Origin: Octopus vulgaris
Taxonomy: Eukaryota
NCBI GenBank assembly: GCA_951406725.2
Contig: OX597816.1
Span: 144,894,001-144,958,000 of the forward strand
Length of the DNA stretch: 64,000 nucleotides
Direction: 5' to 3'
Part shown: positions 12,143 through 57,843 of the stretch, in pieces
Layout of the letters: every line of letters starts with the position of its first letter
Numbering within the stretch: position 1 is the first letter of the stretch
Made by a program: the position numbers and the translations under genes
Notes under the pieces: generated by a model
What the model saw: the letters and a program-made list of their open reading frames with translations, nothing else
Told to the model about the DNA's origin: nothing
Database searches by the model: none

Positions 12143-13008
12143 TAGGTCTGATCAATAAGTATCTGGACTGTTGCTATAGTAACCAGGCAAAAGCACGCAG
12201 GGTGAAGCCGCTGGGCAGAAATTTACCTTAACCTCTGCCGTGCATGCACACTTAGTTTTAATGTTCTCGCTTACTTCTGCTATTTACAGCAGTGCTTGGA
12301 AAGAAGGTATGTAGCGTGTGCTCGTCGCATTGTCCATGGCAGAGAAAGTTGTCATGGTGATACCTGCTCAGGTAGAAAGTTGCAGAAAGCATATGGAGAG
12401 GAGTGTATGAGCCACACACAGGTGTACGAGTGGTTCAGACTTTTCCAAGGTGGCTGAAAAATATCAATATTGACGAACGTTCTGGGAGACCCGCACCCAA
12501 CGGAACTGAGAAAAGCATTGCAGATGTGCATGCAGTTGTGAGGGGAAATCGTTGAATCATCATCTGTGAGTTATCAGAGGATGTTCAGATTAGTTACGGT
12601 TCAGTTCAGTGCATTATCACTGAAAATTTGGGTATGAGACGTGTGTCTGCCATTTTGTGCCAAAACTGCTTTCAGCTGACCAAAGAGACACTTGAGTTTC
12701 AGCAGCACAAGATCTCATTGATTGTGTTTAGAACGATGAAAACATTTTGAAAGTTTTGCATAGGCCTTTTGGCAAAATTTGATGCAGATTCTCTGCTCAG
12801 CTTTCTCTGTCATTGTCAATGTGATGATGACACGCTACACACGTTCCTTCCAAGCACTGCTGTAAACAGCAGAAATGAGCTAGAACGTTAAAACTCAGTG
12901 CACATGCAAAACAGAGTCCAAGGTCAATTTGTGCTTAGTAGCTTCAATCTGCGTGCTTTAGCTTCGTTACTATAGCAATAGTCCGAATACTTATTGATTA
13001 GATTACGT
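12143..13008 (+). mobile_element. Internally deleted mariner with ~180-bp inverted termini
   Basis: 12143-12320 is the inverted match of 12830-13008; the interior reads LQKAYGEECMSHTQVYEWFR...DERSGRP (mariner HTH region). Confidence 0.8.
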
Positions 13009-16495: not shown

Positions 16496-16904
16496 TTATT
16501 TCTTTATTGCCCACAAGGGGCTAAACATAGAGGGGACAGACAAACGGATTAAGTCGATTATATCGACCCCAGTGCGTAACTGGTACTTATTTAATCGATC
16601 CCGAAAGGATGAAAGGCAAAGTCGACCTCGGCGGAATTTGAACTCAGAACGTAACGGCAGACGAAATGCCTATTTCTTTACTACCCACATGAGGCTAAAC
16701 ACAGACGGGACAAACAAGGACAGACAAACGGATTAAATCGATTATATCGACACCAGTGCGTAACTGGTGCTTAATTTATCGACCCCGAAAGGATGAAAGG
16801 CAAAGTCGACCTCGGTGGAATTTGAACTCAGAACGTAACGGCAGACGAAATACCGCTACGCATTTGGCCCGGTGTGCTAACGTTTCTGCCAGCTCGCCGC
16901 CTTA
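16496..16904 (-). mobile_element. SINE family B, dimeric
   Basis: Two tandem core units; flanked by aatcaacatattct / aatccacatattct (TSD, 1 mismatch). Confidence 0.85.
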
Positions 16905-42690: not shown

Positions 42691-45077
42691 ATAATTTCAT
42701 ATTAAATCCTAATGCTCTTTACCTAAGAATTAAAATAAATATAATTACAGAATGAATAACAAAGCAGAAAGTACCCGATTTTAAGAAATAGTTGTATATA
42801 TATGAAGTAAAATTGTTAATGTGAAAAAGCTTTTCATACACGAGTTATATATAAACAAAAAAAAAAACTTGGTCAAAGGGACTTAACTCTTAGTTAAGGG
42901 AGAGAAATCTTGTTAAACGGTTACTAAGTTTCGATACACAAGGTATCTGAAGCATTCAATGTTATTTTTATGAGAAAAGGAATTCACCAAATTAGACAAA
43001 TTTCTACATTGTCGTATTTTATATTCTCTAATAAAGAATGGTAAAAAATAATTATATTTGTAATAGTTATACATTTCAGTGCAAAATCTACTTCGCCACT
43101 TTAGAAACTCTTCATAGAAAAAGTTAAGTGAAATATGTGTTTATTCCATGATAGCAGCAGACGTAAGCTGTTAAAATTATTAATTGGGTGGAATTTCATT
43201 ATAAAACTATATAAATCCTCGAAGAAATAACAAAAGCAGAATGTTTGCAGTTACGGATCGCTGGCAGCTACTTCCATATAACCCCTTAGAAGAACGGCGA
43301 TATATTATCCTGGCAGTCTTCGTCTTATAATTTTAAATGTCTTCATTAATTTAACTTATTAATTAACCATTGAATGTAATATTTAAAACTTTTCTTTCTG
43401 AAATTAAGAGAAAGTTGATCACCTTTATACAATCAAAATCATAGGAACGTAAAATTTGACTTTATTTTCTACGACTGGGGACACAACCTATGAAGTGAAC
43501 ATCGCTTGTCTTGCCACATATTTTTTAATTAGCATTTCGACGCTCTCTGCATTAATTAAAGTAGGACTAAAATAACTATAGATTTCCTTAAAAGAGAATC
43601 AAGACATGATATGCATTAAAAGAAATATTTTGATATGTATATATATATATAAATACTAAGAAAATTGTCATGCACCGTTAGATTTCTAAGGGAGATAATT
43701 CTATTTTCAAGTTGAACCGGAGTTCAGCCGATCCTACCATAACAGTGTCTCGATATTAAATGAAATATATTTAAATTAGCAAATATCTTAGAGGAACAGA
43801 AACCCTTTGGAGTGTTTGGACTAGGAACTGTGTTTCGATTTTTTATTCTAGTTTTCTTTATTCTCACCATTTAACACTTTTGATTGCTTTACCATGTTCG
43901 CTGAATAACCTGTTTCAATTACTGCTGGAAGTAACAATAGGATTAGATACGATGCATTTTGTTACAATTCAATTCAGCATTTAATGTCCTCCTTCCATGT
44001 TGGCAGGAGCTTGAAAGTCAGAATACTGCACCATGTTCTACTGTCAGCTTTGACTGGATCTCATTTCTAACACCAATCATTTTACAGCGTACTGGATGCT
44101 CTTTACGTGGCACCAACAGCAGCAGGGTCAACAAATAACTTGCAAGACAAAACCCCTTACCCCAACAAATAACTTGCAAGACAAAACCCCTAACCCATGC
44201 ATTATATGGGTTTCATTGAGGATAGAATATAGTTGATATGATCAGAAATGCAGAGCATTTCATAGCAATGTGGTAGCAGTATCAAAGTGAGGGTAGTAAT
44301 TAAGATATAAGTTCAGACAAGAATTTCAGATATAAAAATAGAGGTTGTTTTAATTAATATCAGATATCAAATTTTTGCAGAAAGCCAGCAGTTTTGTGGG
44401 AGGGGTTAAGTTGATTACATCAACCCCAGTGACATTTGAACTAAGGCAGATGGAACGCCACTAAACATTTTGCCCTGTGTGCCAATGAGTCTGCCAGATT
44501 GCTGATAGTCAATATTCAATTAACATTAGATATTATAAATGCAAATTAAAAAAAAGACTAAAACCACACAATTTTGCTTACTGGACAACCACATTATTAA
44601 TTTTATTATGCTGTGTCAGTCAGTTGTTTTTTCAAGTCATGTACTATAAACGCTTTTTTTCTTTTTGCCTCTCATTGTGCAGTCCTTAGTCACAGGCATT
44701 CCGTCTATGACCATGCTATTTTTTTGTCTTTATTTAGACTGTTTTGTTTAATGTGTCCTTCCTTTTTTAAGGTGATTGAATGCTATAAAATGAGATCCAA
44801 TCAAAGCAGACAGTACAGCATGATGCAGTCTTCTGACTGGCAAGCTCCTGTCAAACCATCCAACCCTGCCAACATGGAAGGAGGACATTAAATGCTGATA
44901 TATTTTTTTCCCCATGTTTTACAGTTTTGTTTTTCAGAGGAGTTGTTGGATCAAGTTCTTCAAGTATTTGGATGTCTTGTTTTCTAATTCAATTCTAAAT
45001 CAGAATAGCTTTAGCATTTTTTGCTAAGTTGGTGTAATTCAATTTGCAAAATAAAATGCTTAAACAATTTCATAGAG

Positions 45078-45544
45078 ACATTATTTACATTTGACGGATA
45101 TTTGTCCTCATCTTGTTTGTTGTTAACACGTTTCGGCTCAAGTGTCTTGAGGAAATTTTGAACCTGGATTCTTATTCCTAAGGTTTTTTTGATGTTGTTG
45201 CTATTATTATCATTATTCAGGTCACTGCCTGAAATTGAACTCGGAATTTTAGGGTTAGTAGCCTGTGCTCTTAACCACTACGCCATATGCCCGTGGGCAT
45301 AGTGGTTAAGATCGTGGTCTACTAATCCTAAGATTCCGAGTTCGATTCCAAGCAGTGACCTGAATAATAATAACATCGAAAAATACCTTAGGAATGAGAA
45401 CCCAGGTTCAAAATTTCCCCAAGACACCTGAAGGCTGGAGAGTATATTAGCCGAAAAGTTGTGTTAACAACAAACAAGATGAGGACAAATATCTGTCAAA
45501 TGTAAATAATGTACGTAATTCCTCATCTCTTAAATATAGAACTG
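45078..45544. mobile_element. ORF-less inverted dimer of the PLE terminal module
   Basis: Left arm (minus) and right arm (plus) meet at ~45293; perfect 12-bp TSD aatttcatagag at 45066-45077 and 45545-45556; same termini as the 203-1191 element. Confidence 0.85.
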
Positions 45545-45597
45545 AATTTCATAGAGGCTATTTAACTTGCTCAACTGGTAATTTGTCAGGCACTTGA

Positions 45598-45916
45598 AGA
45601 AGAGGAGCACTCTATCGGTTATGACGATGAAGGTCCCAGCTGATATGATCAACAGAACTGCTTGCTCGTGAAATTAATGTGCAAGGGGCTGAGCATGCTA
45701 CAAACATATATACCCTTAACGTAGTTCTCAGGGAGATTCAGAGTGACAAAGCTGGCCCTTTGAAATAAAAGGTACTACTCATTTTTAGCAGATGAATGGA
45801 CTAAAGCAATGTGAAATAAAGTGTTTTGCTCAAGGACACAACACGTCACTGGGAATTGAACTCATGATCTTACGACTGTGAGCCGAATGCCCTAACCACT
45901 AAGCCACATGCCTTCA
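45598..45916 (-). mobile_element. tRNA-derived SINE family C
   Basis: Minus head gaaggcatgtggcttagtggttaggg...gagttcaattccc; related to 55920-56222. Confidence 0.7.
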
Positions 45917-45919
45917 CTG

Positions 45920-51717: not shown

Positions 51718-52014
51718 TGTGGGATGACATCAGCAGCTGGAGAGCTGACCGGAACTTGGGGATGACCGGAAGGGGCAGCAGTGACGCGCGCGCAGCGAGG
51801 GCAGGATTCTGCCTTTTCGAGGCAGGTCGCCGAGCGAGTAAGACGGCGTCAGCATGTTGTTCCCAACCTTAACAACGTGCTGACGCCGTCTTACCCGCTC
51901 GGCGACCTGCCTCGAAAAAACAGAATCCTGCCCTCGCTGCGCGCGCGTCACTGCTGCCCCTTCCGGTCATCCCCAAGTTCCGGTCAGCTCCTCTGCTGCT
52001 GGCGTCATCCCACA
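51718..52014. repeat. 297-bp GC-rich near-perfect palindrome with TGT...ACA ends
   Basis: Arms of ~144 bp around a 9-nt loop (cccaacctt); few mismatches. Confidence 0.92.
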
Positions 52015-56513: not shown

Positions 56514-57843
56514 GGATCTTTTTCTAAAAGATGGACAGAATTTTCTACTTAACTAAATAATTTGAAACTTCGTATACTGGTAGAATGTGTCAAAAGAAAA
56601 CATTAATTTCAATTAGTTTTTTTGAGAAAAATGTATTTTGTAACTTTTACGTAGTTTAATTCTTCGAATTTTAACCAATCGTATTCTCTGTTTTGAGCTC
56701 AATTCATTTGCTGCCGTGTTATTCATCCTTATCTCTGTCTTCAAAGGCTTCTCGCATGTTTATTTCAATGTCATCCCTGACTTACGGAACGATTATCTGT
56801 GTGTGTGTGTTTTTGTTTTGTATGTGTGTGCGTGTGTGTGTTTGTTGTGTATGTGTGTGCGTGTGTGTGTTTGTTGTGTGTGTGTGTGTTATTGTTGTGT
56901 ATGTGTGTGTGTGTGTTTTTGTTGTGTATGTGTGCGTGTGTTGTGTATCTCTTAAATCGATGAATTTCGTCGCCCAATAAAAATATTAACGATATCAAAG
57001 TTAAAAAAATATCGTTAATATTTTTATTGGGCGACGAAATTCATCGATTTAAGAGATACACAACACACGCACACATACACAACAAAAAAAACACAAACAC
57101 ACATACACAACAAAAAGACAAACACACACACACGCACACATACACAACAAAAAAAACACAAACACACATACACAACAAAAAGACAAACACACACACACGC
57201 ACACATACACAACAAAAACACACACACACACAACAATAACACACACACACACACACAACAAACACACGCACACATATACAACAATAACACACACACACGA
57301 CAAACACAAACACGCACACACATGCACAACAAAAAGACAAACACACACACACGCACACATACACAACAAACACACGCACACACATACACAACAATAACAC
57401 ACACACACACAACAAACACACACACACATACACAACAATAACACACAACAAACACAAACACGCACACACATACACAACAATAACACATACACACACAACA
57501 AACACACTCACGCACACACAGAACAAAACAAAAACACACACACACAGGTAATCGTTCCTTAAGTCAGGGATGACATTGAAATAAACATGCGAGAAGCCTT
57601 TGAAGACAGAAAACAGAAGACAGAGATAAGGATGAATAACACGGCAGCAAATGAATTGAGCTCAAAACAGAGAATACGATTGGTTAAAATTCGAAGAATT
57701 AAACTACGTAAAAGTTACAAAATACATTTTTCTCAAAAAAACTAATTGAAATTAATGTTTTCTTTTGACACATTCTACCAGTATACGAAGTTTCAAATTA
57801 TTTAGTTAAGTAGAAAATTCTGTCCATCTTTTAGAAAAGATCC
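56514..57843. mobile_element. 1.33-kb foldback element with GGATC termini and CA/TG-rich internal arrays
   Basis: The whole element is an inverted repeat centred near 57001; 8-bp TSD cagttcag / cagtccag; shares aaacttcgtatactggtagaatgtgt with the 50899-51282 MITE. Confidence 0.9.

Follow-up and report, generated by a model that had tools for sequence, protein, structure and literature searches.

The closest described relatives of the insertion discussed here are the EN+ Penelope-like elements (PLEs), such as Poseidon of Anolis (PMC11167929) and Pen2a of Adineta vaga (PMC3846280; see also PMC8557442); these papers, and the others cited below, are referred to for the parts that were available. 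Like the octopus family, these elements possess a single ORF of 810-850 aa for a reverse transcriptase (RT) with a C-terminal GIY-YIG domain, a pseudo-LTR (pLTR) that overlaps the ORF start and carries a minimal hammerhead and a palindrome at its 5′ end, and insertions with a 30-40-bp tail at one end, an inverted 5′-truncated partner and a target-site duplication (TSD) of 8-12 bp, the last three together being a structure described for Penelope (PMC8557442, PMC3846280). With the Anolis Poseidon in vitro, both strands of the target are cut and extended, and the RT begins copying at two internal positions, one at either boundary of the tail (PMC11167929). The later steps behind the inverted structure are left undefined in the available parts of PMC8557442, PMC3846280 and PMC11167929. 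Unlike the EN+ PLEs described in those parts, the octopus family has a pLTR that opens with a tRNA-Arg-like A/B-box head, insertion ends that mark a sharp putative start just before that head, mostly ORF-less insertions and a consensus free of T4 runs.

A tRNA-derived Pol III promoter followed by a hammerhead is known from the schistosome elements Sm-alpha and Sj-alpha (PMC6765202, PMC2770079), and the octopus element would use its promoter likewise; the schistosome elements are tandemly repeated, do not code for protein and are processed by an active ribozyme, whereas the octopus module is part of a protein-coding element and lies head-to-head. Non-LTR retrozymes (PMC7229834; bioRxiv 10.64898/2026.07.22.740005) are also ORF-less, pLTR-related and hammerhead-bearing, with lengths of 200-400 nt. 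They occur as head-to-tail tandems and circular RNAs, whereas the octopus copies are inverted pairs with TSDs and form no independent lineage; the head-to-head arrangement led us to reject a non-LTR retrozyme as the identity of the locus. In the TRIMp3 elements Cassandra, Helenus and Ajax, a small-RNA-derived Pol III promoter, possibly from a SINE insertion, sits in the terminal repeat, but these are non-autonomous LTR elements whose autonomous partner, it is argued, must use Pol II, and the octopus head sits in an autonomous element (PMC10886601). Literature searches listed no paper on a tRNA-derived head in a Penelope pLTR, no such head is described in the available parts of PMC11167929, PMC3846280, PMC8557442, PMC4209133, PMC13282606, PMC6765202, PMC2770079, PMC10886601 and PMC7229834, and neither tRNA nor Pol III came up in a term search of the available part of bioRxiv 10.64898/2026.07.22.740005. 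Since Repbase, Dfam and most subscription papers lay outside this search, the family may already be catalogued. What is unusual is a probable tRNA-derived promoter in a Penelope pLTR; the architecture of inverted arms, tail and TSD is known.

The insertion occupies positions 45078-45544 of the window, the whole stretch of 64,000 nt of Octopus vulgaris DNA that was analysed. It lies between two perfect plus-strand copies of the 12-bp sequence AATTTCATAGAG (45066-45077 and 45545-45556), 12 bp being the modal TSD length of the family, and the duplication and inverted arms claimed in the original prediction are confirmed. Family positions below take the initial T of the A box as 0. Aligned to the family consensus, the left arm (45078-45299, minus strand) is inverted, tail-less and spans -14 to +232, with a complete tRNA-like head, a (TAA)n tract, the ORF start, a deleted hammerhead and the short 3′ end; the right arm (45296-45544, plus strand) is direct, spans +1 to +264 and ends in a tail. 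BLAST gives 77% identity between the arms, and the whole element folds into a single long hairpin (z = -26). The two are joined head-to-head by a 4-nt microhomology, GGCA, at 45296-45299, and the junction belongs to the 41-nt class. A join precisely at the 5′ ends of both heads had been claimed. The head-to-head join near the heads stands, but it is not exact at both, the left arm including 7 nt beyond the base equivalent to the first of a tRNA, and the right arm missing the first 7 nt.

In the left arm, the leader (45285-45299, minus) runs from the putative RNA start, a G at -13 (45298) suggested by the pile-up of insertion ends, to the A-box T at 45285, and has a small palindrome inside. On the plus strand, the right arm presents the rest of the A box and the B box of the tRNA-Arg-like head (45296-45361; B box GTTCGATTCC at about 45341-45350), an ATG (45394-45396) that opens the 835-aa RT and GIY-YIG frame of the script consensus in tandem and full-length copies, and a minimal type-I hammerhead (45424-45466) damaged by deletion of 3 nt of CTGATGA and by GAAAA instead of GAAAC. 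The left hammerhead has lost 21 nt, stem II included, so both cores are damaged, as had been noticed. At 45513-45544 (plus) lies a 32-nt Penelope tail (compare PMC11167929, PMC3846280) between the two putative RT start sites, and this is the surplus of the right arm that had been put at about 30 nt. The locus holds pLTR only; the ORF stop of the family sits at -39, outside both arms, in agreement with a dimer devoid of ORF sequence. Its outer termini both match, as predicted, those of a sibling insertion of the same Penelope family at 203-1191, whose two arms contain unequal stretches of the ORF end and whose heads both bear deletions. Taken alone, the locus is an ordinary Penelope insertion: a dead product that does not replicate as a unit.

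The arm is the pLTR of an autonomous PLE with an 835-aa RT and GIY-YIG ORF. A GIY-YIG-type fragment in the sibling insertion (570-731, minus) runs into the same arm as that at 45078-45544; walking upstream through natural copies reaches the RT domain and then the arm again, and in these copies the ORF leads directly into the head and hammerhead. Scripts building a majority consensus returned one 835-aa frame in a 2655-nt unit, beginning inside the arm at +111 and stopping at -39. Natural copies of the form pLTR-ORF-pLTR exist (L286, L287, L357, L358), and in them the pLTR results from a partial tandem and overlaps the ORF start. Pfam RVT_1 was matched by L363 (E 5.5e-10) and, below the cut-off, by L351 (2.7e-6), and homologs of 810-850 aa share PF00078/PF26215, some with PF01541. 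A single ORF with RT and C-terminal GIY-YIG, the hallmark of EN+ PLEs, is thus borne out by the consensus frame, the RVT_1 matches and the homologs, and it is the ORF walk, the pLTR-ORF-pLTR copies, these matches and the homologs that identify the tRNA-like and hammerhead module as a pLTR. On fragments of the family Pfam did not call GIY-YIG, three short fragments giving no match, and a PDB sequence search returned weak RT matches only. We take the motif VYSIPCSCGRLYKGET in the protein to be that of GIY-YIG. The pLTR consensus has a minimal type-I hammerhead with CTGATGA, stem II, GAAAC-GTT and a closing stem I; Rfam in evalue mode over the window, and on copy L097, gave no tRNA or hammerhead match, and ARAGORN over the window reported none either. 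The clade name Poseidon is a label that we presume to apply from the order of the domains, the length and the motifs. A search for other Penelope families in the same genome gave this family only, for which reason the controls for T4 runs were drawn from metagenome loci of other organisms. This Penelope family is an old one and occurs, too, in four DNA-type runs whose labels name four organisms.

Two exact anchors matched 2557 and 2914 places in the 2.8-Gb genome. Of the first 100 places listed for each anchor, we studied 92 for the first (90 loci) and 85 for the second, the remaining 15 for the second being loci already in the sample; after removal of 8 duplicates the 175 loci represent 167 insertions. 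All lie in the initial 108 Mb of contig C1, and anchoring by exact match biases the sample towards less decayed copies. The sample comprises 109 inverted insertions, 30 unpaired ones and 28 unpaired arms ending in a (TAA)n tract, the last being set aside before ends were counted. An apparent second peak of 5′ ends at +57 to +90 was rejected, since it consists of these 28 of 167 arms, which end mostly at long expansions of the tract or at other elements inserted into it. The (TAA)n microsatellite of the pLTR can expand greatly, and other elements, whose ends recur, often interrupt it (L031/L032, L040/L041, L086, L271, L278).

The inverted structure with a 5′-truncated partner, a tail at one end and a short TSD recurs in the family: of the 93 inverted insertions that retain both ends, 86 combine a long end at about +265 with a short one at about +232, and TSDs of at least 9 bp flank 52 of 89 intact inverted insertions compared with 3 of 709 mismatched-flank controls. 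The TSDs are AT-rich with a peak at 12 bp. Most inverted insertions (88 of 109) are ORF-less, and other ORF-less dimers with TSDs, whose absence would have spoken against the original prediction, are abundant. No empty site for 45078-45544 was found among contigs of the four DNA-type runs, where none of the joints listed bridges the insertion; one contig follows the window over 44806-45024 and departs from it thereafter. Three insertions (L051-L054; C1 21.17, 21.30 and 22.16 Mb) have nearly the same TSD sequence, two of them also the same structure, and probably reflect segmental duplication.

The 5′ ends of the arms form a wall just before the head. At -14 to -5 their density is 0.068 per nt (55 ends over 803 nt at risk; binomial P 3e-70), compared with 0.0023 at +91 to +190, 0.0030 at +16 to +56, 0.0023 at -200 to -26 and 0.0019 at -1000 to -201. 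Among the 113 elements that reach +15, 83 end within -25 to +15 and 30 go on towards the ORF, and the subset anchored at the 3′ end alone has the same wall (36 of 49). The sharp junction peak foreseen at the tRNA-like 5′ end is therefore present in the 167 insertions, and junctions are not evenly spread. Its upper edge is abrupt, the match to the cognate base falling from 61-64% at -13 and -14 to about 30% at -15; ends called at -25 to -15 are mostly alignment artefacts of a palindrome. Both arms stop at the wall in 23 of the 109 inverted insertions, symmetrical like 45078-45544, and one arm does so in 50. Because unpaired copies (10 of 30 start at -14 to -7) and three tandem jumps landing at -13/-14 (L300, L311, L316) respect the same boundary, the template RNA likely began just before the A box. 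No full-length copy from -13 through the whole ORF was present among 45 loci examined. Three RNA runs (raw reads of one study, aligned to copy L125) gave family-wide cover with equal depth on both strands and no pile-up of starts or ends. A weak second pile-up of 5′ ends occupies the +181 to +190 bin (9 of 248, compared with 3-6 in most bins), with arms ending at +181 to +184 in L035, L048, L107, L220, L237, L253, L270 and L281; +181 is the predicted hammerhead cut, and a GTTAAC palindrome at the same spot could explain the pile-up equally well.

Two tRNA-SINE families of the same genome (76 and 5 heads) start about 10-11 nt before the A box, and the spacing from wall to A box resembles theirs. 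An abundant short-repeat family in the window (20394, 41673, 49780, 61043) is the tRNA-SINE used to calibrate this start spacing; a second abundant short-repeat family is seen at 16554, 16738, 47341 and 52325. The head is best matched by tRNA-Arg(TCG), with a score of 18 compared with a shuffle mean of 2 and maximum of 7 (distinct tRNAs of 30 loci), and it resembles a neighbouring SINE head slightly more (21 versus 18). In the consensus the A and B boxes are both undamaged, spaced as in a tRNA and immediately downstream of the putative start; the A- plus B-box pattern also matches 24 of 30 genomic tRNA loci and 0 of 26 other Penelope-like 3′ regions. Probably the head came from the captured start of a tRNA-Arg-type SINE. 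A tRNA-derived SINE whose head resembles that of the pLTR lies 200 bp downstream of the locus (45757-45917, minus) and belongs to a candidate donor family.

Pol III terminates at T4. The 2655-nt consensus contains no TTTT, T4 occurs in at most 13% of copies at any site, and the absence from the consensus has P values of 0.04 (codon shuffle) and 0.008 (base shuffle), or 0.035 and 0.011 on repetition; T4 is found in 32 of 33 other intact Penelope-like ORFs from metagenome loci, at 1.1 times expectation. The signal is weak and was measured on the consensus, A5 runs being depleted there as much as T4 (P 0.009) and natural copy L351 having 3 T4 runs in 1970 nt. Short Pol III transcripts, once proposed as the templates, are not supported: no TTTT terminator is present in the consensus, and RT that begins internally on a long transcript yields an identical product. 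From its sequence features we judge transcription from the head by Pol III to be somewhat probable.

The same mechanism and RNA start could instead belong to a Pol II transcript that begins about 28 nt after a TATA-like motif, with the tRNA-like head as a passenger or accessory, which seems to us unlikely. The motif in question, TTTATAA, lies at -43 to -37, about 28 nt before -13, and overlaps the ORF stop codon, but Pol III genes, too, can rely on a TATA motif upstream of the start. Transcripts of Pol III lack a cap and the ORF must be translated, so that its translation would need explaining if Pol III were used. Promoters with TATA/Inr have been described in the pLTRs of other Penelopes (PMC3846280, PMC6765202). 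Against a Pol II transcript speak the intact pair of boxes, spaced as in a tRNA and following the start immediately, the SINE-like start spacing and the T4-free unit.

A quite unlikely reading dispenses with an RNA end at -13 and has RT, on long read-through transcripts, stall or self-prime at the palindrome at -14 to -3. The sequence from -24 to +12 can indeed form a hairpin (-11.5 kcal/mol) whose 5′ foot coincides with the wall, the most frequent class of symmetrical junction (15 of the first 50 listed, 48 nt) is a perfect fold-back at that foot, and self-priming at palindromes of inverted Penelope junctions has been proposed (PMC3846280). The wall, however, also stands in the 10 of 30 unpaired copies, in the tandem jumps and in the 50 of 109 inversions with one arm at it, and the longer stem to -21 that read-through would permit is found in 1 of the first 50 junctions listed. 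Among 86 inverted insertions, moreover, the tail-less arm exceeds the tailed one in 45, the reverse holds in 35, and 6 are ties; a longer arm without the tail of the shorter one disfavours a single cDNA folding back and copying itself.

The genomic copies thus favour two cDNAs from two start sites over self-priming, a distinction that a likely fixed RNA 5′ end allows them to make. Our preferred reading, which we hold to be a little better than even, is that the ORF-less inverted pLTR insertion arises when each of the two target strands primes a cDNA on an RNA template; the tRNA-derived head would be where this RNA begins, probably through Pol III. The endonuclease would cut both target strands about 12 bp apart, and reverse transcription would begin at two internal sites of the 5′ pLTR, +232 and +265. 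An uninterrupted cDNA would run off the RNA 5′ end at -13, after which the two cDNA 3′ ends would anneal by microhomology and repair would close the insertion; 45078-45544 would be a case in which both cDNAs got to the head. Since reverse transcription would start in the 5′ pLTR and the cDNA end at the RNA 5′ end, the autonomous element's own RNA can give ORF-less products. In L1 twin priming, two target strands prime two cDNAs, which join by microhomology to give an inversion with a TSD; the second primer there sits at variable internal sites, whereas the octopus family has two fixed putative starts 33 nt apart and a duplicated 3′ end. Counted from the ATG, its two 3′ ends are at distances of 121 and 154 nt. 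This spacing is close to the Anolis geometry (available part of PMC11167929). Four of the 30 copies running past the tail into the ORF (L295, L300, L307, L311) end at +499/+500, in an AC-rich place that is a possible third RT start site.

Exact head-to-head junctions number 586 genome-wide (control 0), counted with a pattern blind to spans over 52 nt. The first 50 listed include 15 of 48 nt, 7 of 41 nt (the class of 45296-45299), 7 of 40 nt and 5 of 46 nt, the rest being scattered; the junctions use short microhomologies, are not the same from copy to copy and occur in both mirror orientations. Among 108 dimers (28 chosen by likeness to 45078-45544 and 80 from the sample), no site separated tailed from tail-less arms (best P 0.019 among 173 sites), and non-CpG variants common to both arms of one insertion occurred at 0.0062 per site compared with 0.0018 after permutation (3.4 times; 0 of 1000 permutations reached 0.0062). 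The lack of arm-specific variants, the many junction types and the 23 of 109 symmetrical cases indicate, as far as sequence comparison goes, that the dimer is assembled de novo at each insertion. A MITE or foldback DNA element was rejected on the same absence of arm-specific variants, the likeness of arms within a copy and the variable junctions.

Although the module has the A- and B-box head of a tRNA-derived SINE, no non-autonomous lineage distinct from its driver was detected: ORF-linked (57) and ORF-less (161) arms show no diagnostic difference (best P 0.013 among 189 sites), and outside CpG they diverge by 4.7% and 4.2%. Penelope-mediated insertion as one event is supported by the TSDs, the inverted arms and the pLTR identity. 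A distinct non-autonomous family and a foldback unit of about 470 bp, both part of the original prediction, are not supported, the module being the pLTR that follows the autonomous element's stop codon, and the dimer not being replicated as a unit. A separate tRNA-head and hammerhead family of SINE or retrozyme-like kind, mobilised in trans as that foldback, is very improbable and largely refuted, for in spite of the 88 of 109 ORF-less inversions, the 586 exact symmetrical junctions and the schistosome precedent of Sm-alpha (PMC6765202, PMC2770079), module and variant frequencies are identical in ORF-linked copies, arm-specific variants are lacking, junctions fall into many classes in both mirror orientations with 23 of 109 symmetrical, and Anolis RNA needs sequence beyond the tail for use (available part of PMC11167929), which by extrapolation these copies would lack.

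A tRNA-like promoter of its own would be unusual for a protein-coding transposon. Lying in the terminal repeat of an autonomous element, it would blur the division between autonomous Pol II elements and Pol III SINEs, and if derived from a tRNA it would offer a route from Penelopes to Sm-alpha-like elements of tRNA and hammerhead. A bolder version, rather doubtful in our view, is that Pol III transcribes the element from end to end from the captured tRNA-Arg-derived promoter, the 2.66-kb unit being kept TTTT-free; since that promoter would also render most insertions SINE-like, the family would then be a Penelope becoming its own SINE, with thousands of copies that record twin priming in vivo. 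For annotation, a warning is in order that copies of this family resemble SINEs or MITEs.

Three further inverted structures were observed in the window. At 12147-13002, inverted arms of 205 bp (80%) belong to a decayed element; its frame is broken and has motifs like those of a mariner transposase, a label that we presume to apply. A GC-rich, near-perfect hairpin in AT-rich surroundings (51718-52014) has 144-bp arms (94%) and a 9-nt spacer. At 56520-57838, perfectly inverted arms of 223 bp enclose inverted GT/CA-rich repeats and a central hairpin, an arrangement that is foldback- or MITE-like and young.
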